Of a DNA stretch of 64,000 nt, positions 4,196-43,281 are shown piece by piece. A program made the position numbers and the translations under genes. Source of the DNA: Candidatus Iainarchaeum sp. (GTDB taxonomy: Archaea; Iainarchaeota; Iainarchaeia; Iainarchaeales; UBA10219). The notes beneath the pieces are model-generated. The model worked only from the letters and a program-made list of their open reading frames with translations. It made no database searches and was not told the origin of the DNA. Position 1 is the stretch's first letter. Each line of letters begins with the position of its first letter. The stretch is taken from the NCBI GenBank assembly GCA_018304425.1, contig JAGVWE010000002.1:32001-96000 (forward strand). Reading direction: 5' to 3'.

Positions 4196-4758
4196 AGTTG
4201 GAAGTCGAACGACAGTTGTTTCACCTGGTGATGGGAACTGCCTTCGTTTTGGTCGTCCACTTTTTTGGCGTGCAGGAGACCCTTTACTTTTCCCTGGCCT
4301 TGCTGGCGTTGGGCACGGGAGTGGCTTGGCTGCTGGGAAAGGGCGTGCGTTTGCCGTTCGTCTATGACGCGTTGCGGTTGGCGGAGCGGGAGCACGAGAA
4401 GGGCATCCCTGGTTTTGGCGCCTTCAAGTTCGTGTCCGCGGTCTCGCTGCTCACCCTCTTGTTCCAATCGGAGCGCGTGGTGTTGGGCGCGTTGCTGGTG
4501 CTCGCGTACGGGGACAGTTTTTCGACGTGGGTGGGAAAAAACTTTGGCCGGATTAAGACGGCCGGGAACCGGACCCTGGAGGGAACCGTGGCCGGCGTGT
4601 TGTCGAGTTTCCTGATATTGGGCTTGTTCTTCGAGCCCTTCACGGCCTTTGCCACGGCCTTGGCCGGGATGCTGGCGGAATACCTGCCGGTGGACGACAA
4701 CTACTCGATTCCTCTGGTTTCGGCCGCGGCCCTGACGCTCTTGAAGGGCGGGGCCTAA
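4192..4758 (+). CDS. Dolichol/phytol kinase-like membrane protein (SEC59/DGK1/VTE5 family)
   Basis: RQLFH, GDSFSTWVG, RTLEGT and DDNYSIP motifs. Multiple TM helices. Confidence 0.85.
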   Translation: MKLEVERQLFHLVMGTAFVLVVHFFGVQETLYFSLALLALGTGVAWLLGKGVRLPFVYDALRLAEREHEKGIPGFGAFKFVSAVSLLTLLFQSERVVLGALLVLAYGDSFSTWVGKNFGRIKTAGNRTLEGTVAGVLSSFLILGLFFEPFTAFATALAGMLAEYLPVDDNYSIPLVSAAALTLLKGGA

Positions 4759-4809
4759 CCGGCTGCAGGGGCAGGAATAAAAAGGCTTTTGCGCCCAAAG
4801 CCGTAGAGC

Positions 4810-5013
4810 GGCCAGTTGGATTGAGTGAAGCCTACCGCCCCGTCGAGCCACTTCGGGCGAAGACGGGGCACGCCTGCGATGTCAACGGCCCTGGAGGTGG
4901 CCGCCTAATCGGCTGGCGCCTCGGCAGCTGTGCGAGGCCGAAAGGCCGAGCCAGCCCGGTCGAGCCCCGCAGGGGGCGAAGACCGTGCACAGATGTCAAC
5001 TGGCTGGGCAGTT
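4810..5013 (+). ncRNA. Putative structured RNA / tRNA 5' leader (~200 nt) with tandemly duplicated hairpin units
   Basis: Terminal stem 4810-4819/4996-5005. Two copies of gccc-GTCGAGCC-loop-GGCGAAGAC-gcac..GATGTCAAC with a compensatory change. GAAA-loop hairpin. Abuts tRNA-Arg. Confidence 0.5.
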
Positions 5014-5088
5014 GAGCGGGTCGTCTAGCCTGGATAGGACAGATGCCTCCTAAGCATCAGATCGAGGGTTCAAATCCCTTCCCGCTCG
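5014..5088 (+). tRNA. tRNA-Arg(CCT)
   Basis: Acceptor GAGCGGG/CCCGCTC, anticodon arm GATGC-CTCCTAA-GCATC, T arm GAGGG-TTCAAAT-CCCTT. CCA is not encoded. Confidence 0.95.
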
Positions 5089-5090
5089 CT

Positions 5091-5160
5091 ACGCCTTTTT
5101 ACAAAAGGTGTGCGAAAACGTCCCATGCCATGCATGGGACTGGCTGGGCCGGCCCTAGCA
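5091..5160 (-). repeat. Dispersed hairpin repeat, copy A (immediately 3' of tRNA-Arg, inverted)
   Basis: 5094-5145 matches the reverse complement of the 43.2-kb copy at 48/52 nt. Confidence 0.85.
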
Positions 5161-5222
5161 AACCTTTATTAATTTTAGATTCACTTATTATAGTCAATTA
5201 GTAGGGGTATTAGAGGGGAAGG

Positions 5223-8200
5223 GTGGGTAAAATCAGGGCACGGGCGTTACTGGTTTTTGTCACGTTGTTGGCGCTGGCTTGGATGGCTCAGGGAGCCTTG
5301 GCCGAGGAGGCCTCGTTGGCTGAAAGGCTGGGGTTCACGGCAACCGGTTTCGATTTCGCGAAAGTGGACCTGGTGCTCGCGGCCGGAATCCTCATCGTCT
5401 TGTGCGTGGTGTTGTATGCCGTGCTGGCCGTGTTCTTGAAGCCCCAGCAAGGCCAGTCCTATGAGGCGCCCCAGGAGTTGACCGTGGAAGGAATCACGGG
5501 AGGAGAGACAACGCCGCCCAGGGACGAGTCGAATCCCGTCATGAAATTCTATTATTCGTTGGAGGACGGCTGGTATAATTTCTTGGACGGCTTGAACCAG
5601 GTCATCCCCGTCTACAAAATCATCGACCCCATTGACCAGGTCATCCCGTCCTTTGCCTTGTTCTTGTTGCTCTTGTTGTTGCTGCTGGTTGGTGGCCTCT
5701 ACTGGGGCGGCGCCTTCAATGCTCCGGGCCCGGATGGAACCGGGGGCGGAGTGCTGTGGCCGGTCGTGGACTGGATGGGTTCTCTCCTGGGCTGGAAGAA
5801 GGCGGATGCCGCAGGCGTGCAGTTCCTGGTGAGCGACGAGCAGGCCAATCCCGTGGCGGGCGCGCAGGTCGCCGTGGCCTACGGCGAGCAGGCCGAGAGC
5901 TATTCCACCAACGAGTTCGGCGAGTTCTCCATGCCTGTTTACCAGGCTGAAATCTTTTTGGACGTCCAGGCCGAGGGCTTCGAGCGGTTCTCGGAAAACT
6001 ATTCGGTGAACCGGGAGGGCGTGAACCGGGTTTCCTTGAAGCGCGCGCCGCTCTACTTCGCGGAGAACCGCGTGCTGGAACTCGTCGACGAATTCGGGGC
6101 CAGGGTAACGGAGGCCGTGTTCGTGAGCTTTTCCTGCAGTGGCAGCTATAACGCGCCGGCCAGCCAGTCCACGACCACGGGCGAGGTCAGTGTCACGTAC
6201 ACCGGCAACTGCGGCACCCTGATGGCCAGCATCCGGGCGCAGGGCTTTGAAGACCAGACGGTGCTCATGAGCGGCTCGCGGACCGTGGCCGTGTTGAAGA
6301 AGAAGTCGGCCGACCGCTTGAATGGAAAGCTGAACGTCAAGCTGCTCGGCCCCCAAAGCGAGTCCATGACCGGCATGGAAATCCGGCTGTTTGACAACGA
6401 CAACATCTGGAAGAACACCGGGAAATCGGATGCTGCCGGCAGTTACTCGTTCACGGTCACGCCCGGCACCTATTACGTGCTGGTGCAGGACCTTGCAGGC
6501 AAATTTACGTCCACGCAAAGCAATAAGGTGCCGGTGGACGCAGGCGAAGAAGTCCTGGTGGAAGTCCGGATGAGCAAGGCCGGCACCGATGGAAGCGGAG
6601 GAGACGGGGGCGGAACCACGTGCGCCCCGGGCAAGACATTGTGCGCCAATGGGCAGTGTCAAACGAGTTGCGGGCCCGGGGTGTTGCCGGCCTGTCCAGC
6701 CGGGCAAAACCGGTGCGCGGACCGCACGTGCCAGGCGAGTTGCGGGCCTGGACCCATCAACTGCCCCACCGGCACCAACCTCTGCCAAAACGGGACCTGC
6801 AACGCCACCTGCCCCGTAAACCGGCCAAAACCGATGCGCAGACTACTCCTGCCAGGCCGATTGCGGTTCGGGTCCAGGGGATGGCGGGGAGCCCCGGAAA
6901 GTGGAGTTGAAGCTCGTGGACTCGGGTTCGAGGGCGGGAATACAGGGCGTGAACGTGGACTTGTACTTGGAGGGCATCCAGTTGGTTTCGAACGCGCGCA
7001 CGAACTCGGAAGGCGGGGTCGTGTTCGCGAACGCGGACCGCGTGAAACCGTATTCCATCGTGGCAAGCGGGCACCCCAGTTACGTGATGAAGATCGTCAG
7101 CGGCATCCAATCGCAGTTGCTGAACGCCAATCCCATCGTCATCGAGTTGGAGAAGTTGACTCCCACCAATTCGGGGGAAGTCGCGGTCAAGGTGACGGAG
7201 TTGGGGGCGGGCAACGTCAAGCAAGCCGAAGTGTTCTTGTACAACAAGCTCTTGGCGGTGCCCATCGTGAGGGGCTTGACGGCGGACGACGGCAGCGCCT
7301 CGTTTCCGGGGTTGCCGGCGGGGACGTATTCTGCGATGGCGTCCAAGGGGTTGACGCAGGGAAGGAGCGCGGAAGGCACGTTGGCGGCCGGGAGCCGGCT
7401 GGAGTTGGCCGTGCAATTGGTGTTGATGGAGGGCGGCCTCAAGGCCCGGGTCAAGGACGCGCAAGGCAACGGGGTGCAGGCCGCGAAAGTCGAGTACTAT
7501 AACTTGTTGGACAACCGGAAGGTCGGCGAAGCCATCACGGATGTTACCGGCTTGACTCCTGAAGTCAAGCTGAAGATAAACGTCGTGCCCTATCTCGCGG
7601 TTTCAAAGACCGGCTTCTACACCAAGCGCACGGCGGAAACCGAGTTGACGCCGAATGTGACGAAAACCGTTGACGTGACCCTGTCCAGGGAGCAAGCCAT
7701 GGGCCCTTGTTCGCCGGGACAGGCCTTGTGTGCGAACGGCCAGTGCGCGAACAGTTGCGGGCCCGGGTCGAATCCATGTCAGGCCCCAAACAACCTGTGC
7801 TCGAATGGAACGTGTAGTTCGGCTTGCCCCGTGCCCCTCGACTGTCCAGTAGGGCAAAACCGGTGCGCGGACTTTTCGTGCCAGGCCAGCTGCGGGCCCG
7901 GCATCCATCCGGGGTGTCCTACGGGGCAAAGCATTTGCTTGGATGGTTCTTGCCAGGCCAATTGTGGGCCGGGGCCGTTGCCTTCCTGTCCAGTCGGGCA
8001 GGTCCGATGCAATGACCGCACGTGCCAGGCGAGTTGCGGGCCTGGACCCATCAACTGCCCCACCGGCACCAACCTCTGCCAAAACGGGACCTGCAACGCC
8101 ACCTGCCCCGTACTACTCCTGCCAAACCAACTGCGGACCCGGCAACCTCCCAACCTGCCCAACCGGCCAAAACCGATGCGCAGACTACTCCTGCCAGGCG

Positions 8201-11200
8201 AGCTGCGGCGTGGGGCCGTTGCCGCAGCCGGCCGGGGAAATCTCGGTCCGGTTGCAGGAAATCCTGGCAGAGGACTTGAAGTCCCAGGCCAGGGTGTTTG
8301 CGAAGAACACGGCGTACTGGTTGCGGTTCAGCGAAATCATTCCGAACGAGGACAACAAGCAGGTGCAGTCCGTGGTGCGGACTGGCCTGGAGAGCCAGGC
8401 GGACGCGGTTTCTTCGTTGATGGTGGTGCGGGATGCAAAGGCACCGGGCGTGAGCGTGGTGAAGTCGTCTTCGTTTGACCCCGCCAACAATTATGCGGAC
8501 AAGTCTGTGACGGCCGAGGACGCGAAGCAGGCCCGGTTCGGTTTTGGCGATGCCGGCAAGGGCGAGTACGAAGTCATGGTCAAGTCGTTCATTAAGAACA
8601 CTTCGGAGGCCAATGCCCCGGTCGAGATACGGTTTGGGACGAAGGCGGAAGTGAACGGTGTGCCGGTGGAAAAACCGGCGCCGGGCCAGTTGTACACGCG
8701 TTCCTACCGGCTGGGGGAACTCATTTCATGTGACCCCAATGACGTCGGCTGCACGAACTTCGTGTACGCGTTTTACTTGAGTGACCTGACCGGAAAGCAT
8801 TTTTCGGGGAAAATCCCCGTTTTGCCGGGGAAGAGCGTGGAAGTGTGGCAGGGCCTCACCTATTCCTTGGAGTACCGGATATTCAATGCCCACAAGCAGG
8901 GGAAGAGCCTGAGCAACTCCGTGTTGTCGTTCACGAACGCGGACCATGCCTTGGACGTGGTGCCGCCCTCCATTCCCCTGGCTTCCTTCGAGGTGGGCAC
9001 GAGTGTGAGCGGCAGCGTCAACTTCACGCCCAGGTCCGAGGCCGCCGTGACGAGCCTGGCCGTGTCCCTGAATTCAAGCGAGCCCGATTCAAGGGCTACT
9101 CTTTCGTTCAGCGTGCCGGGCAAGAAACAGTTTGCCGCCGTGCTTTACCCCAAGAAGCTGGTGGAAAACGTTCCGGCCAACGTCGTGCTGGAGGTAAGCG
9201 ATGCCGCGACCCGGGAGCGGGCGGCGAATGCCCTGGTCAAGGTTTCAACGGCCGAGGACTTGTCGAATCCCCTGGCGGCGGCCTTGACGGAAGCCGATGG
9301 CGTGGCCGTGTTCTCGGTGCCGGGCCTGCCGACGGGAAGCCGGTTGTTTGCCTCCGTTGAAAAGGAGTTTTACGCGAAAAAAACCGGTCTCGTGTGGGAA
9401 GTGCTGTCCGCGACCACCAGCTTTGTCCCGGATCCCTCCCTTAATTGCCTGAGTATCTCGCCCGCGAAGCTCTCGGTTCACCGCACGTTTGGCGGGGAGT
9501 TCTCGGTGAGTGCGAGGAACTGCGACGAGGAAGCCGAGTTGTTCGTGTATGAGACCGTGGCAGGAACCCCCTTGAAGCTCGTGAACAAGTCGGAGAGCGG
9601 GGCCCGGCTTTCCCTGACCACCGCGCCCAATGCGAGGCTGCCGAAGAATGGTTCCCTGTCCATTGGAGTCATGACCGAGGGCTCGACCTACCAGGGCGAC
9701 TACCTGGTGAACGTGCGCGCGCGGTTCGCCGGGCAGCAGGAGTTCCGGAACCTGGGACGCGTGGAGGTAACGGTGGGCACGAGCCAGGCCAGCGAGAGCT
9801 GTTATGGGTTGAGCAAGGCGTCCTTCGACATCTTCCACCGGCCGGATGACGCGGTCATCACGAACCGGTGCTTCCAGGCGGTGAACGATGCGTTCACGCC
9901 GAGGCTCACCCTATCGAGCCTCAAGGCCCTGTTGCAGCATGCCGGCCTCTCGAGCCTGGGCAAAATCGAGTTTTATTGGTCGGTGTCAAGGGCCAACCCG
10001 GATGGCTCCAGGGAAGTCATCGTGCCTGCCACGTATGCCGCGATTTCGCCGAAGGAAAACCGCCGCGTGGAGTTGGCGGACATCGAAAGCGAGTTGGACA
10101 GCCTGGTCATCGTGGACGTGGACGAAGGCGTGGACGTGGGAGAGGAAGCGGAAGACGAGGGGGGCGGGGAGGAAATGGAGCTCGAGGTCTTCAATACTTC
10201 GGGGGGTCTGGTGAGCACCGACCTGGAGGGCACCATCGTGGTGGCCGAGTACATTGGCGAAGACACGCAGCAGGACCCCTTGATTGAAGTGCAGGCGCTC
10301 AACAACGACTTGCGGGGCCTGGAGCCCGCCTTGTTGACGGTCACGGATTACGTGAAGGTCGCTGACCTCAAGCCCTTCACTGAGATGGGCTTCAAGTACA
10401 CGGTGACGGCGAGGGGCGAGGGCATCGACGTTGCGAAGATTTTCCTTGGAACCATTTCTGCGGACGGTGAGCGCCATGACCTGGGCGGCTTCAACGTGGA
10501 TGCCTTGGCGGGGTTGCAGGGCGTGACTTACACGGTTTCCAACGACCATGCCTGGGTGCAGACCTTGTTTGCGGGCACGCTGACGAACCAGACCACGAAC
10601 CCGGATGACCGGGTCATCGCGCGTTCGGCGGTGGACGTCTTGAAGAAGCGGGACGTGAGCGTGGCTCTTATTTATGACCCGACTTGGGGGCGGAAGTACC
10701 TGCGGCAGGTGTGCGACAACCTGGGGTCGGTTGGCAATGCGTTCGCGCAGGCCGGCTTCAACGTGGACGCCAAGTTGTATGCCATGGGCCGGAAAAGCAA
10801 GTACGTGAAGTGCGACCACGAACTGCTGACCTGGGCGGATGCCTCGAACACCGCGTATGACCGGGTGAGGGATGACGTGCGGGAGGCCTGGGGGGCTGCG
10901 GTGCAGGATTACTTGAAGCGGTTGGCGCCCTCGGATGACCGCCTGATATACGTATTCGTTTTGGCCAACAATGACCCGACCGGCACCGGTTTGGGGGCGA
11001 GGCTGCCGAAAATCACCGGCGTTTCGGCTCCGGAGAGAAAACGGTCGGACAACTGCCTTGCCAACCTGCGGCAGTATGCCGAGCAGGCCCAGCAACGGCA
11101 GCATTGTGCGGCGAACTGCAGCCAGTATAACCAGGATGGGGGAAGCAAGAGCAATGAGGGCAGCGGCTATGACCCCTGCCTGCAGTGCCGGTATGCCAAC

Positions 11201-13003
11201 TTCCAGTCCCAGGACCCGACTTGTACGAACCTCAGCTTGTCGCGCTGGAGGAAGGGAGGCGAGGAGGTGGTGGCGGAGAACGCCGCCAAGGCCGCCGCGG
11301 AAAAGGGGGCCCAGCTTTACTTCTTTTACCCACGCAAACTCGAACAGCGGTCGAGGAGGGCGTATGGGAGCCGGAAGGCGTTGGACGCCGTGGAAGTCAT
11401 GCAGTTGGCGGCTGACTTGTCCAAGGGCAAGGCCACGAGCATCAAGAACCTGGGCAACATCTCGGTCGACTTGGTGGACACGATCCGGGTCATCCAGAAG
11501 TCGTTGAACCCCACGGCCACGGAGACGTTCCACGTGCTGCTCAGGGCAGGGGACACGGACGTGTGCTATGGGCCCAACGACATCGAGGGCTTGACCGGCG
11601 AGAACGCGTTCCCGCGCGCCTTGTTTTCCTGGAATGCCGCGAAAATCCAGGCCGACACGTGCAGCAAGTCCAGCAACAAGGTTGCCTTCTGTGACGCGAG
11701 CCAGTTCAGCTTGTCGCTTATCAAGCGGTTGCTGCTGGTCCAGCAGTTGTACAAGGAAAAGAAGTACGATGACGTGGAAAACCTCTTGCACGACGAAGTG
11801 TACTTGAAGCCGGATGGTTACACGGCGGACCTGCTGTCCGACCTCGATGAGTACTTGCGGTCGCAGGCGTTCTTTGAGACGCCGAGCGGTTACCTGCAGT
11901 GGCTCAAGGAATACTTTTCGAGCCCGGGCAGGCTCGAGTTCGTTTCCGACAACCATTCCCTTACGCCGCTGCCCTCGGCTGGATTGTACCGCATGGACAT
12001 TTCCATTGAGTTCCCGCCGGGAAAACTGGGGCAGTTCATGGAATCGGATGAGCCGGTTGCGTTCATCACCGTGAAACTCAATGAAGTGGTGGGCATGCCG
12101 ACTTCGAACCTCTTCGAGCGGCTGCCCTTGGACGGCGCCATCGTTGAAACGAGCCGGGAAGGCTATGGGGTGAGCTATACGGGCGACCGGGTGCCCATCC
12201 GCTCGGATGAGGGAGTGGAGGCAAGACCCATTCCCGGCAGCGATAACCTGGCATTGGTGAGGGTAGCGCATCGGACGGACTTCGAGTACCTGAACAACGA
12301 GGCGCGGTCGTTCGTCTTCCACGCGAAGGACAACCTGGATGGAACCGTGGACTGGGTGTTCAGCCCGAGCCATGCCGCGCCCGCCTTGTTGAAGGTCGAG
12401 GGCCGGCCCGAGCGCGCGGAAGCATACTACAAGGTGGTGGACGCGCAGGGGGCAAGCGTGGACGTGGGCGCGTTTGGCTCGCTGTGGACGGGAATCGCGA
12501 GCAGCCTCTTCAATTGCGCTGACTTTTCGGGGAAGCGGGTGTTTTACAAGCGCGCGGACGCCCGGAACGCGGGTTGTGCCAAGGAGAAGAGTGGTTACAA
12601 TTACGGGTTCAGCTGGCTGCCAACGGGCGGGCAAGCGGTCTTGGATGCTGGCGCGGTTTACCTGCGCACGATTTTCTACACGCCGGTGGACCAGGTGTAC
12701 AGCGTCAAGAACGTGTGCGCGTCGGGTGAGCCCCTGATTGTTTCGACGGCGCAGACCCTGGACAACTTCGACGAATTCATTGGCTTGAAGCACAACCTGG
12801 AGGCAACCACGTTGAGCGACATGTTCGAGAAGGTGAAGGCGCGGAAGATGTGCTTGAAGGCGAGCGACAACGAGGTAAGGCTTTGGTGGAACGAGGACGA
12901 GTTGTACAAGGAACTGGCAGCGAATTACAACGATCACTTCGATTCCCTGGCCGAGGGCAACGCGGACTTCCAGGCGTGTGGCCCGGAAGCCGCGCAAAAG
13001 TAG
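5223..13003 (+). CDS. Giant cell-surface protein: signal peptide/TM anchor, carboxypeptidase-regulatory-like beta domains, Cys-rich repeats, Ig-like and vWA-like regions. Reading frame broken at ~6818 and ~8112.
   Basis: ORFs 5223.., 6901.. and 7943..13003 join into one protein if +1 shifts are assumed directly after two identical 99-bp repeats. The CPxGQNRCADxSCQASCGPG units continue across both breaks. Confidence 0.8.
6720..6818 (+). repeat. 99-bp exact repeat, copy 1 (Cys-rich array)
   Basis: Identical to 8014-8112. Confidence 0.95.
8014..8112 (+). repeat. 99-bp exact repeat, copy 2 (Cys-rich array)
   Basis: Identical to 6720-6818. In addition, 8161-8199 equals 6819-6857. Confidence 0.95.
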
Positions 13004-27147: not shown

Positions 27148-27206
27148 ACCAAAGGAATAAGCCAGGGGATTACTTAAAAAGGTTATGATTAACGAAAACG
27201 AGTAAG

Positions 27207-27321
27207 GGCTTTTTACAACCATCCCCTGTTGGGGGTGACGTCGTCCTGCGAAGCAGGACAACGAAACCCTGCGAAAACGTCCCGTGCCACGCACGGGACT
27301 GGCTCGGCCTTTCGGCCTCGC
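27207..27321 (-). repeat. Dispersed hairpin repeat, copy B, with extra hairpins, upstream of ribBA
   Basis: Core 27270-27321 matches copies A and C with compensatory stem changes. An extra hairpin has a G-U pair only on the minus strand, followed by TGTAAAA. Confidence 0.85.
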
Positions 27322-27373
27322 TTTGGGTTGGCGAGGGCCGGTCTTAAAAGCTTGTCCAGGAATTGTGTAGTTC

Positions 27374-27781
27374 ATGCGTTATCCGGTGTACCCTTTCACG
27401 CGGCCCGAGAGCGTGCCGGCGGACGCGGACAGCATCCACCTGGTGCGGCCCGTGCACCACGCCGTGCTTGCCCGCATCGTGGAAAAAACCGGGTTGAAGG
27501 AAATCTACTTGGCGGAGTCCTGTGCCCGGCGGTTGAGCCGCAAGACGCGCAGGTTCCTGGAGGAACGGGGCGTGCAACTGGTGGCCAAGAAAAAACGCGG
27601 CCGCGTCCTCTCGCTGTCCCTCGAAAAAATCAGGCAAATCATCGGCCTCCACCAGGACGACAAGACCCTCCGCGAAATCCAGGCCCAGACAGGGGTGCCG
27701 AAGAGCACGGTCCACTACCTCATCAAGTACGCGGACCGCAGCAAGATCCGCTTCCAGGGCAAGACCGTGCACCTGGAATAA
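27374..27781 (+). CDS. DUF1699-like protein with C-terminal HTH
   Basis: IHLVRP and KRGR motifs plus TLREI...TGVPKSTVHYL HTH. Confidence 0.7.
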   Translation: MRYPVYPFTRPESVPADADSIHLVRPVHHAVLARIVEKTGLKEIYLAESCARRLSRKTRRFLEERGVQLVAKKKRGRVLSLSLEKIRQIIGLHQDDKTLREIQAQTGVPKSTVHYLIKYADRSKIRFQGKTVHLE

Positions 27782-31946: not shown

Positions 31947-32735
31947 CTATTCACAGTACTGCTTCCGCAACTCCTTGCCCTTCTTGAAGGCAAGCGCCAC
32001 GCACTTGTTGATTTCCTCCGGCGAAAACGCGCCCTCGCCTCCCTTCTGGAAAGCCGAGATGAAGTCGTCCTCGGTGGTGGTCACGGAAAACCGCGCGTCC
32101 AACGCCTTTTCCTCGGCCAGGCTGGGGTCCACGACCACGCTGTTCCCCACCTTGACGAATGTGCACATGACCGGCTTGCGCGCCAGCTTGAGCTTGCCCG
32201 CGAACTCTCCCTTCACCGGCTTGTCCTTGTCGTCCAGCTTCGGGATTTTCGTGTCCTGCAAGGCAATCAACGCGGCCAAGGCACAGGCGTCGAAGAGGTT
32301 GCCGTCGAAGTTCAAGACATAGATGTCGATGAACACGACCCAAACCAGCTCGCCCTCGCGGATGCAGAGGCTCTTGAAATCCAGGCAATTGGACTCGCGG
32401 ATGCCGCGGTCCACGACCCTGGAAAGCTCGATGGAGCCCTCCCGGGGCGGCCCGGCCTCGAAAGTCGGGTCAGCCAACGCCAAGAGCTCCGCACCCACGC
32501 TGATGGTGCCCGCGTCCGGCGTGTCCGGGAACGGTTCCCCGGGAATCATCTTGATGCCGGCGACGACATCCGTCTGGCCGAGCTTGATGCGGCAAATCCC
32601 GTCCGCGTTCTCGCTCACGTTCTTGATGACCTGCACAGGCCGGTATTCATCGAACTTCCGGCCATCGCTTCGCTTGCCCTCCCGGAGGGTGGCAAGCACC
32701 TTGTCCGCACTCAAATTCCACAAAATCTGGCTCAT
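31947..32735 (-). CDS. rrp42: Exosome subunit Rrp42
   Basis: R.DGR..DEYR, PFPDTP, ELSRVVDRGIRES and DGNLFDA motifs. Confidence 0.97.
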   Translation of the reverse strand: MSQILWNLSADKVLATLREGKRSDGRKFDEYRPVQVIKNVSENADGICRIKLGQTDVVAGIKMIPGEPFPDTPDAGTISVGAELLALADPTFEAGPPREGSIELSRVVDRGIRESNCLDFKSLCIREGELVWVVFIDIYVLNFDGNLFDACALAALIALQDTKIPKLDDKDKPVKGEFAGKLKLARKPVMCTFVKVGNSVVVDPSLAEEKALDARFSVTTTEDDFISAFQKGGEGAFSPEEINKCVALAFKKGKELRKQYCE

Positions 32736-42151: not shown

Positions 42152-43180
42152 ATGCCCAAATGCAACCGGAGGTGTGCGGCAGAGGCCAAGATAACGCTTG
42201 CCTACGGGCCGCACCACTATTGCGCCGAGCATTTCACGGACTTCTTCGAGCACCGTGTCACCAAGACCGTGCGGAAGTTCAAGCTGCTGAAACGCGGGGA
42301 GAAGGTCGGGATCGGGGTGAGCGGGGGCAAGGATTCGCTGGCCCTCGCCTACCTGTTGGGGAAATACTACGCGAAGTCCAACGAGCTGCTGGCGCTGATG
42401 ATTGACGAGGGCATCGAAGGCTACCGGGATGTGGCCCTGCGGGTGGCGAAGAAATACTGCGACGAGTGGAAGATCCCCTACCAGGTCGTGAAACTCAAGG
42501 ACCGCTTCGGCTACTCGACCACCGAAGTCGTGCACAAGATAAACGCCCAGCCAAGCCTGGGCACGAGCTGCGCGTTCTGCGGGAGCTTCCGCCGCACCGT
42601 CATGAACGAGTGGGCGCGCGAGCAGGGCTGCGACAAGTTTGCCACCGGCCACAACCTGGACGACGAAGCGCAAAGCGTGTTGATGAACGTTTTCTCGAAC
42701 AACCTGCCCAAGATGGCGTGGCTCGGGCCCATGACGGGCGCGGAGGGCTTTGACGGCAACGGCTTGTTCGTCAAGCGCGTCAAGCCCCTCTACGAGTGCC
42801 CCGAAAAAGAGATCATCGCCTTCGACGCGTTCAAGGGAATCGAGCACTACTCGGAGGAATGCTGTCCCTTCAGTTGGATGGCGAAGAGAAACCACGTCCG
42901 CGAGATGCTGAACCACTTCGAGGACCAGTTCCCGGGCACCAAGTTCACGGTCGTCAAGTGGTTGCAGGACCTCAAACCCCACTTAGAGGACGTCAAGCCA
43001 GCGGGCCGGCTCCAGGCATGCACGGCGTGCGGGAGCCCCTCGAACAGCCCCCTGTGCCGGCCCTGCAGCATGGTGAAGCTGCTGGACGCCGTCAAGGCCG
43101 CGCCCCGGAAAGCCGTTGCGGCCAAGGGGGGCCCCACCTGCGCCGAAACCAAGGGCCTCCACGACAGGGAATTCGTTTAA
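42152..43180 (+). CDS. tRNA 2-thiolation protein (TtcA/Ncs6/TIGR00269 family)
   Basis: SGGKDS PP-loop, CAFCG..RR, ATGHNLDDEAQS, and N- and C-terminal Zn fingers. Confidence 0.92.
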   Translation: MPKCNRRCAAEAKITLAYGPHHYCAEHFTDFFEHRVTKTVRKFKLLKRGEKVGIGVSGGKDSLALAYLLGKYYAKSNELLALMIDEGIEGYRDVALRVAKKYCDEWKIPYQVVKLKDRFGYSTTEVVHKINAQPSLGTSCAFCGSFRRTVMNEWAREQGCDKFATGHNLDDEAQSVLMNVFSNNLPKMAWLGPMTGAEGFDGNGLFVKRVKPLYECPEKEIIAFDAFKGIEHYSEECCPFSWMAKRNHVREMLNHFEDQFPGTKFTVVKWLQDLKPHLEDVKPAGRLQACTACGSPSNSPLCRPCSMVKLLDAVKAAPRKAVAAKGGPTCAETKGLHDREFV

Positions 43181-43207
43181 AAGCGTTAGCAAATAGATTG
43201 AATAGCG

Positions 43208-43281
43208 TGCGAGCCCGAAAGGGCGAGCCAGTCCCATGCCGCGCATGGGACGTTTTCGCAAACCTTTTGTAAAAAGGTTTT
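43208..43281 (+). repeat. Dispersed hairpin repeat, copy C, forming the 5' leader of tRNA-Val
   Basis: GC-GA-GCCC-GAAA-GGGC-GA-GC, CA, GTCCCATGC-cgc-GCATGGGAC, GTTTTCGCA, AACCTTTT-GT-AAAAAGGTT. TATA TTTAAAAG at 43176. Confidence 0.85.

Follow-up and report, generated by a model that had tools for sequence, protein, structure and literature searches.

The window analysed here is a stretch of 64,000 nucleotides of DNA from Candidatus Iainarchaeum sp. (positions 32001–96000 of contig C1, from a genome of 1.48 Mb with 58% G+C in 7 contigs). A folded block of about 200 nucleotides is located directly before the gene for tRNA-Arg(CCT), which lies at 5014–5089 of the window on the plus strand (ARAGORN; Rfam tRNA, 58.8 bits). 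This block is a mosaic of genome-wide repeat modules and is not unique to the locus. Its repeated component, here called the unit, belongs to a multi-copy family with covarying helices, and the terminal hairpin of the unit, P2, lies within ±2 nt of tRNA termini. Copies of the unit were gained at orthologous sites, and some of them carry flanking duplications. We consider it probable (roughly 0.7) that the block before tRNA-Arg(CCT) represents stacked insertions of this mobile structured repeat, tolerated as the leader of the tRNA. At least two units would have been inserted at the 5' boundary of tRNA-Arg(CCT), with a hairpin of a second repeat family between them (4812–5013). The unit is apparently an undescribed mobile repeat, and it is absent from Rfam.

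A family of structured units with a covarying pseudoknot

A DNA search of the genome with positions 4800–5013 gave 23 matches, three of which were copies of about 95 nt at 79–80% identity, and several of which were shorter module matches. Iterated nhmmer searches found 19 copies of the module formed by P1, the first hairpin of the unit, in the same genome. A simple regular expression for the terminal hairpin gave 219 matches, compared with 207–237 in shuffles, and was replaced by a covariance model, R1, built from 11 aligned units of this genome (alignment A1). R1 gave 29 matches in the genome at E ≤ 0.01. At the same threshold, 47 of the 150 other genomes examined from this order gave matches, with up to 14 copies each, and the G+C content of these matches ranged from 32% to 67%. 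The distribution was patchy by family, with units in all genomes of families f2 (9/9), f17 (6/6) and f25 (4/4) and in none of families f3 (0/16) and f27 (0/13). In the phylum sample, no units were found in the genomes of five further families outside the order-level sample (f33–f37; 0/11). Many of the genomes are incomplete metagenome-assembled genomes (MAGs), and these absences are soft. Two exact motif patterns gave 0 matches in viral contigs. No description of such an element was found in the literature, repeat catalogues in supplements lying outside the scope of that search. A one-off "odd tRNA leader" becomes, in this way, a family-level object in roughly a third of the genomes sampled from a small-genome archaeal order.

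The unit is about 70 nt long, and a long form of about 100 nt contains an extra hairpin in the linker. A 5' motif (CCTACCG or ATATTTATG) is followed by hairpin P1, then by a conserved linker and finally by the terminal 6-bp hairpin P2. P1 has a lower stem of about 7–8 bp, which often continues via tandem G·A into a short upper stem. All three helices, including a pseudoknot, were shown to covary. RNAalifold on A1 returned P1 and P2, with double compensatory changes at 8 of 14 pairs. In a second alignment, A2, made of 32 distinct copies taken from other genomes, pairing was seen in 95.2% of cells, compared with 68.4% in shuffles; 15 of the 18 pairs changed on both sides, and slid controls reached 29–47%.

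The pseudoknot is formed by 3–6 nucleotides of the linker, located four nucleotides upstream of P2, which are complementary to the P2 loop. The strand and loop variants were CCACAG/CUGUGG, UCCAG/CUGGG, CACUG/CAGUG, CACGG/CCGUG, UGCG/CGCA and UUUCG/CGAAA. Its 3-bp core was paired in 97.6% of 42 distinct units, compared with 8–56% for register slides, and 0 of 2000 partner shuffles reached the observed value. This support is independent of model fitting because the pseudoknot was left out of the search model. At pair 86–102 of A2, CG, GC, UA and AU were found 15, 11, 3 and 2 times, respectively, while CG, AU, UA, GC and UG were found 13, 9, 6, 1 and 1 times, respectively, at pair 87–101. The first stem measures 3–4 bp, the first loop 4 nt, the second stem 6 bp and the last loop 2–3 nt. 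P2 and the pairing of its loop with the tail form a compact H-type pseudoknot, in agreement with the test for that fold class.

Comparison with H/ACA, K-turn, HEARO/omegaRNA and sotRNA models had been proposed in the first-pass annotation of this DNA, and no Rfam model matched the element. At gathering thresholds, the whole window gave 3 tRNAs only. At E ≤ 10, the only matches in positions 4600–5300 were the tRNA and two at chance level, well short of their cut-offs, and at E ≤ 0.1, 15 unit loci gave tRNA-clan matches only. A K-turn was rejected because the internal loop of P1 is a 2×2 or 2×3 tandem G·A and no register gives a 3-nt bulge. An H/ACA-type sRNA was also rejected, as P1 is followed by ACA in some copies and by UCA in others, with no Rfam match.

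The stems were 95.6% Watson–Crick (833 of 871 cells), and G-U pairs were about as frequent as A-C mismatches (11 and 9, respectively). Near-pure Watson–Crick stems are unusual for RNA selected on one strand. The bias fits a structure that forms in DNA or on transcripts of both strands. In transcribed regions, leaders contained units in the sense orientation, and the rRNA spacer, 3' flanks and introns contained them in the antisense orientation.

An A/T-rich octamer (at least 7 A/T), typically ATATTTAT, formed the 5' motif in 38 of 67 distinct units. This A/T box ended 21–28 nt before the A of the conserved linker GTAT in 21 of 31 measurable units, and the distance was 32–39 nt in the remaining 10, which were long P1 variants. 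The spacing of the A/T box corresponds to archaeal promoter geometry, in which such a box lies about 24–27 nt before a pyrimidine-purine start, and such subfamilies may donate promoters, for example to tRNA-Ser(CGA). That the whole unit is a portable promoter cassette we regard as rather unlikely. The 5' motif would be the TATA box, the 19-bp P1 palindrome the spacer between TATA box and start, and the conserved CGACGTATG the initiator, and the transcript driven by the cassette would begin with the pseudoknot. The frequency and spacing of the box are consistent with such a cassette, as are the resemblance of the motif to the TATA boxes of tRNA genes in the same genome and the lack of any other A/T box in the flank of about 26 nt upstream of the unit of tRNA-Ser(CGA). 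However, the long P1 variants break the spacing, antisense copies at 3' ends and in introns would fire into the antisense strands of tRNAs, and a spacer role needs no covariation of P1. Furthermore, the two units of the window carry CCTACCG and no A/T box and lie downstream of a separate box (4776–4783), so a cassette leaves the region in question unexplained.

Placement at tRNA ends and signs of insertion

Among the 39 tRNAs predicted by ARAGORN in the genome, P2 ended at position −1 of six, namely those for Arg (CCT), Cys, Leu (CAG), Leu (GAG), Ser (CGA) and Pro (CGG). The seventh sense case at a 5' end was an intron-containing tRNA. Nine of the 30 best R1 matches in the genome adjoined a tRNA, seven in the sense orientation at the 5' end and two in the antisense orientation at the 3' end. 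A diverged antisense unit was also located after tRNA-Ala(TGC) in the rRNA spacer. In the other genomes, 57 matches were inspected, from 29 loci representing each genome's best match and 20 loci from unit-rich or closed genomes; these were top-scoring matches and not a random sample. ARAGORN or Rfam placed at least 16 of the 57 next to a tRNA, and four more read by eye bring this number to 20. Ten of these 20 were sense at 5' ends, eight were antisense at 3' ends, and two were antisense inside introns at the canonical position. In every tRNA-adjacent case, the P2 end faced the tRNA, within about ±2 nt. The tRNAs adjoined in other genomes were those for Val, Ala, Ile, Gln, Glu and others, which brought the overall number to at least 12 identities. 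Two matches preceded the 5' end of 23S rRNA (downstream sequence read by eye), and other units lay within operons between genes, or only a few nucleotides ahead of a start codon. A riboswitch or a dedicated regulator in tRNA leaders was rejected as a candidate, since the units adjoin tRNAs of at least 12 identities, protein genes and 23S rRNA, in both orientations, and are tied to no single gene class or tRNA identity.

A filled and an empty orthologous site were found in genus g33. In genome G099, an antisense unit makes up most of the 76-nt intron of tRNA-Ala(CGC), and another antisense unit, of 72 nt, begins right after the discriminator base of the same tRNA. The congener G032 had the same tRNA and downstream flank, with no 3' unit and an intron of about 19 nt. 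Orthologous introns of a class-II tRNA that held an antisense unit were also observed, with lengths of 78 nt in G051 (L068, 1465–1625) and 106 nt in G003 (L206, 277–467). The ARAGORN anticodons of these orthologues differed (Cys gca and Ser gct), and the splice point is uncertain. At tRNA-Glu, all four congeners examined had a unit at the 5' boundary; the units were of clearly different subfamilies, and the tRNAs were 96–100% identical. This suggests repeated insertion or replacement at the tRNA-Glu boundary.

Direct repeats scoring at least 15 flanked 10 of 78 units, compared with 0 of 312 spacing-matched controls. The flanking repeats were about 10–34 bp long, and at least 31–43 bp long for a copy on contig C6 of the window's own genome. 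They bound the insert, which begins 0–13 nt before the 5' motif and ends 0–6 nt beyond the last base of P2. Inserts defined by flanking repeats had no shared inverted termini. At the C6 copy (C6:128815–128994, plus strand), the 3' end of a 395-aa open reading frame (ORF), which looks like a geranylgeranyl-reductase-type flavoprotein by translation, is duplicated on both sides of the unit. The central 25 nt of the duplicate are identical, and the last four codons differ at 6–7 positions and encode the same L-R-G-stop. Recombination with a foreign homologue and conversion between the copies are both possibilities for this pattern.

The junction of porD and porA, in the 2-oxoacid:ferredoxin oxidoreductase operon, contained units in two genera, at differing insertion points. 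In G016 (L184, 1300–1540), there was one unit, and a duplication of 38 bp took in the stop of porD and the start of porA as well as the ribosome-binding site. In G055 (L185, 1300–1540), there were two units and a 26-bp duplicate of the end of porD, and the second unit ended directly at the ATG of porA. No clean empty site was found for this junction in G040, where the operon is arranged differently, or in G085, where the locus has no visible junction. A copy of about 100 nt is read through in frame by a 455-aa ORF for a lipoyl-domain acyltransferase of the E2 type (C3:163060–164431, minus strand). The translated copy lies in the Ala/Pro-rich linker between the lipoyl and subunit-binding domains.

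Contigs of four sequencing runs that covered parts of positions 4300–5700 ended inside repeats, and no insertion polymorphism was seen in the parts covered. In practical terms, the repeats break assemblies, and structured leaders of this kind could be mis-annotated as novel non-coding RNAs (ncRNAs) or riboswitches.

The unit could instead be a cis-acting RNA module under host selection, with a role in marking or protecting the ends of transcripts, an explanation that is compatible with mobility and that we hold to be unlikely. Once RNase P had cut at the neighbouring tRNA, or at a tRNA-like fold in antisense, the RNA upstream would end in a pseudoknot that blocks 3' exonucleases, and in operon and rRNA spacers the module would insulate or stabilise the neighbouring RNAs. 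Compensatory changes keep the structure even at orthologous sites, and a gene or tRNA on the same strand lies 20–162 nt upstream in five of the seven 5'-end cases of the window's genome. The rRNA spacers of other genomes hold units between tRNA-Ala and 23S and before tRNA-Ala, and the antisense variant follows tRNA-Ala in the spacer of this genome. Operon spacers hold units as well, for example between porD and porA, and one unit lies between two large same-strand ORFs read from translation as genes for RNA polymerase B subunits. A gene for RNase P RNA is also present in the genome. On the other side, the stems are nearly all Watson–Crick, with G-U pairs at the level of A-C mismatches, units are found in either orientation within transcripts, a protein gene has one copy in its translated sequence, and the presence of units varies patchily from family to family and also between congeners.

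Candidate routes of movement and known repeats

Three enzyme families (Y1_Tnp, RVT_1 and DDE_Tnp_1) were searched as candidate mobilising enzymes, with tallies that were made by hand and are confounded by phylogeny. Y1_Tnp was found in 16 of 47 unit-bearing genomes and in 26 of 103 other genomes, while 31 genomes had units only and 77 had neither. The closed genome G016 (99% complete) had 5 units and no Y1 match, and the unit-rich genomes G085 and G099, with 13 and 11 units, respectively, also had no Y1 match. RVT_1 was found in 19 of 151 genomes and was not found in the window's genome, G016, G040, G085 or G099. DDE_Tnp_1 was found in 25 of 47 unit-bearing genomes and 36 of 103 others, leaving 22 of the 47 with no match. 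None of Y1, reverse transcriptase (RT) and DDE_Tnp_1 is needed for the presence of the unit, and the association is none or weak. Incomplete MAGs weaken the Y1 negative, and an RT on unbinned plasmids or viruses is possible.

The first-pass annotation had considered the block as tandem relics of IS200/IS605 ends or of TnpB omega-RNAs. The part of this proposal that stood is the tandem of two repeats with signatures of insertion, while the identity with IS200/IS605 ends or omega-RNAs was not supported. The genome contains a multi-copy IS200-type element, found at three contig ends (C1:1–640, minus strand; C4:1–100; C7:1–100), with a Y1 transposase of about 150 aa. Its right end consists of the hairpin CCCCACCC-TTTA-GGGTGGGG followed by AGGATGTCAA, and the flanks of two copies diverge right after TCAA. 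The association with IS605 made earlier is explained by this right end. That the units themselves are IS200/IS605-type ends, similar to REP or PATE, which a Y1 transposase would mobilise in trans in the form of single-stranded DNA, is improbable. It would account for the likeness to the GC hairpin and AGGATGTCAA of the genome's own element, with which the window units share GATGTCAA, and for the Watson–Crick-only stems, which fit a DNA structure. However, neither TCAA nor the shared octamer is conserved in the family; TCAA lies in the linker and the 5' strand of P2, which varies freely with compensatory changes (CAGCUG, AAACGG, GAGCUG, CGGCUG), and the hairpin sequences of the units differ from the IS200 ends. 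Flanking duplications of 10–34 bp are present, whereas, to our knowledge, IS200/IS605 insertion makes no target-site duplication. Moreover, 31 of 47 unit-bearing genomes had no Y1 match, including G016, G085 and G099.

As for omega-RNAs, the likeness lies in a GC hairpin followed by a short tail, with GATGTCAA common to the units and the IS200-type right end. In contrast to IS200/IS605 ends and omega-RNAs, the units have no conserved TCAA and no adjacent tnpA or tnpB, carry flanking duplications, contain a conserved hairpin where the guide would begin, and have no HEARO or omega-type match in Rfam. The only TnpB-like ORF of the genome (C6:132820–134022, plus strand; 400 aa; Cas12f1-like_TNB, 93.9 bits) is not adjacent to a unit. 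Its downstream sequence differs from the units, the nearest of which is 660 nt away, beyond another ORF.

The units resemble several other classes of small repeats. Bacterial mosaic repeats, such as the repetitive extragenic palindromes and their composites (REP/BIME) and BOX, are likewise short, GC-rich, hairpin-forming and multi-copy, with covarying stems; they are also combined in mosaics and mostly located in intergenic regions or operon spacers. REPs are single hairpins of about 35 nt tied to RAYT/Y1 transposases, while the units have a pseudoknot, variable flanking duplications, exact tRNA-end placement and no clear link to Y1. Rickettsia palindromic elements (RPEs) are simple bacterial palindromes of 100–150 bp. 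They are likewise small structured repeats found both between genes and in frame within genes, as here in the acyltransferase linker, and we know of no tRNA-end precision or pseudoknot described for them. MITEs (miniature inverted-repeat transposable elements), such as Correia elements, are similar in being non-autonomous, small and multi-copy, in having target duplications and in that they may carry promoters. MITEs end in inverted repeats and make duplications of constant length, in contrast to the units, which have no inverted termini and duplications from about 10 to 34 bp or more. A MITE was rejected as the identity of the unit on these two grounds.

Retroposons of the short interspersed nuclear element (SINE) type, and retrotransposons that target tRNA genes, such as Ty3 and TRE5, share with the units a fixed 3' end, a variable 5' end, target duplications of variable length and a strong association with tRNA genes. 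Unlike these elements, the units have no 3' tail and no enrichment of G-U pairs, their hosts are archaeal, and RT was not found in most unit-bearing genomes. A SINE-like retroposon was rejected, as RVT_1 was not found in the window's genome and G-U pairs numbered 11 against 9 A-C mismatches. For small prokaryotic repeats, a covarying pseudoknot, very variable duplications and orientation-specific placement within two nucleotides of tRNA ends are unusual properties.

The long and variable duplications of the units have a precedent, because insertion of IS1549/IS1634 yields long, variable direct repeats of 8–514 bp, and this family is found preferentially in Euryarchaeota, according to PMC2266710. 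In contrast to the units, IS1549/IS1634 are DDE elements of 1.5–2 kb with inverted ends, and 22 of 47 unit-bearing genomes had no DDE_Tnp_1 match.

More tentatively, and with odds well short of even, the unit may be a new archaeal mobile element whose own 3' terminus, the P2 end, is joined to natural processing ends of pre-tRNAs. Sense copies would use the RNase P site, and antisense copies would use the tRNase Z site or the 3' end of the 5' exon. The pattern at tRNA ends would follow from RNA-end priming or template switching, which would point to a retroposon-like route. If this is true, tRNA introns are enlarged or newly created directly by the units, and promoters are distributed in finished form by some of the subfamilies. 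The way in which tRNA introns of archaea arise or lengthen is called open in a 2026 preprint (10.64898/2026.10.13.758758). The two tRNA introns that consist largely of a unit, where the same-site intron of one congener is only about 19 nt long, bear on this question.

The leader of tRNA-Arg(CCT) and its surroundings

The features of the block described below are on the plus strand unless stated otherwise. A TATA-like box, AATAAAAA, was read from the sequence at 4776–4783 as the putative promoter of a transcript of leader and tRNA, because no A/T box lies nearer to tRNA-Arg(CCT). Other tRNAs of the genome have TTTAAA or TTTATA boxes about 25–35 nt upstream. The start of the transcript is predicted near 4805–4812. 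The sequence GAGCGG (4806–4811) repeats nucleotides 1–6 of the tRNA and may be a remnant of a target duplication, weakly indicated by a 6-mer. It is followed by GGCCAGTTGG (the two spanning 4806–4819), the 5' arm of a helix that closes the block. This arm looks like a leftover 3' strand of P2, and a similar GGCCAGTTGG is located upstream of a unit at C3:313.5k.

Unit 1 is of the long form (4820–4930; R1 match at 4820–4901, E = 1.2e-5; computed fold). It contains the 5' motif CCTACCG (4831–4837), P1 with its GA/GAA loop (4837–4869), a tail with the pseudoknot strand TGCG (4875–4878), the inserted hairpin in the linker (4887–4902) and P2 (4910–4915/4925–4930), whose loop carries CGC at 4917–4919. 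It showed 79–80% identity over about 100 nt to the copies at C3:130821, C3:164004 and C5:65235. Between the units, the hairpin CGAGGCC-GAAA-GGCCGAG with tandem G·A (4933–4950) is the 5' module of the second repeat family, and copies of this hairpin were found at C4:155382, C1:59293, C1:191896 and C1:75207 (89–97% identity). Unit 2 is of the short form (4951–5013; R1 match at 4935–5016, E = 6.5e-12). It contains P1 with a GA/GAA loop (4955–4987), the pseudoknot strands CACAG (4988–4992) and CTGGG (5004–5008) with 4 of 5 pairs, the linker ATGT (4993–4996) and P2 (4997–5002/5009–5014). The last pair of this P2 uses G1 of the tRNA, and the helix is present in the minimum free energy (MFE) fold of 4951–5014.

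All the features reported in the first-pass annotation were recovered. The closing helix pairs GGCCAGTTGG at 4810–4819 with TCAACTGGCT at 4996–5005 over 10 bp, with G-U pairs at both ends, and it is contained, in extended form, in the MFE fold of 4800–5013. This fold had a free energy of −110.9 kcal/mol, compared with a mean of −95.6 (sd 4.6) in shuffles (z = −3.3), and 0 of 200 shuffles were as stable as the native sequence. The duplicated units (4831–4886 and 4951–5000) aligned with 39 of 58 columns invariant. Both have the GA/GAA internal loop, and the swap from C-G to G-C between them was located at C4841–G4865 and G4958–C4984. The 11-mer ACTGGCTGGGC, noted on both sides of the tRNA, occurs at 4999 and 5139, compared with a chance expectation of 0.07 and with two matches in 0 of 100 shuffles. 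The alternative helix, which includes nucleotide 1 of the tRNA, is also real, and it is P2 of unit 2, the helix that is conserved and covaries across the repeat family. The closing helix had a counterpart in only one other copy inspected in the genome (C3:313.5k).

From the closing helix and P2, a dedicated conformational switch controlling the maturation of this AGG-decoding tRNA had been proposed, and we consider it very improbable. The two helices are mutually exclusive and both thermodynamically plausible, and P2 reaches nucleotide 1 of the tRNA. However, the same unit is located before the tRNAs for Cys, Leu (three isoacceptors), Ser and Pro in this genome, and before those for Val, Ala, Ile, Gln, Glu and others elsewhere; it also adjoins protein genes and 23S rRNA, in both orientations. 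The rarity of the closing helix among the copies, the lack of ligand-type conservation and the lack of an Rfam match also argue against a switch.

Under the preferred reading, stacked insertions tolerated as a leader, the block would be transcribed with the tRNA from the A/T box at 4776–4783. The units would fold one by one, and P2 of unit 2 would sequester positions −6 to −1 of the leader and compete for G1. RNase P would cut at 5013/5014 and free a leader of about 205 nt ending in a pseudoknot, and the transcript would end at the T5 run at 5096–5100. Archaeal RNA polymerase terminates at oligo-T, for which reason this run, supplied by a reverse-oriented copy of the second repeat family, is the likely terminator of the tRNA transcript. 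Release of a stand-alone RNA by RNase P had been suggested before, and it is reasonable to expect because the gene for RNase P RNA is present in the genome (C4:131063–131277, plus strand; 107 bits, cut-off 84). The match covers 215 nt, compared with 288 positions of the archaeal model, and the RNA may be of a reduced form. Loss of RNase P was rejected as an explanation, as the RNA gene is present. No conserved complement that would form a bulge-helix-bulge of leader and trailer was seen by eye in the trailers of unit-linked tRNAs. Most likely, this tRNA tolerates the block as a passenger, which has at most a modulating effect on processing and did not evolve for AGG decoding.

Several points weigh against this reading. 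Promoter, RNase P cleavage and leader fate are all inferred from the sequence, and no mobilising enzyme was found among Y1_Tnp, RVT_1 and DDE_Tnp_1. The window locus has no close relative in the sample, as its family is represented by this genome only, and insertion there is argued from how the repeat family behaves elsewhere rather than from an empty site. Most tRNA-adjacent copies have no flanking duplication. Furthermore, orthologous copies in congeners (G051 and G003) keep P2 and the pseudoknot via compensatory changes, and 4 of 4 congeners examined keep a unit before tRNA-Glu. The kept structure and the tRNA-Glu units point to selection of the fold after insertion, and the word passenger may understate the function of the unit.

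The second repeat family consists of the hairpin GCGAGGCCGAAAGGCCGAGCCAG, a second hairpin, ACGTTTTCGC and the near-palindrome CCTTTTGTAAAAAGG. Downstream of tRNA-Arg(CCT), a reverse-oriented copy with the palindrome CCTTTTGTAAAAAGG and a hairpin lies at 5094–5150 (minus strand) and holds the second ACTGGCTGGGC. In the window, the family is also present at 43057–43281 (plus strand) and 27193–27471 (minus strand), and elsewhere it was found at C1:191881, C4:145180/145229, C5:170547, C7:53823/53892 and other positions. A 15-mer of this family had 11 plus-strand copies at up to 2 mismatches, compared with 1 in a shuffled genome. The family ends 3–4 nt before 7 of the 39 tRNAs, and it may act as a bidirectional terminator or as an A/T box.

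Among the neighbouring genes of the window, one ORF was read as fibrillarin-like from its translation, and a phosphopantothenate-synthetase-like gene has archaeal relatives. Three long overlapping ORFs of 759, 525 and 1686 aa with Cys-rich repeats are located at 5223–13003 (plus strand). The Cys-rich repeat PGPINCPTGTNLCQNGTCNATCP recurs nearly verbatim at about 6.7 kb and about 8.1 kb, and the region resembles a single giant gene for a surface protein that contains frameshifts or internal duplications.

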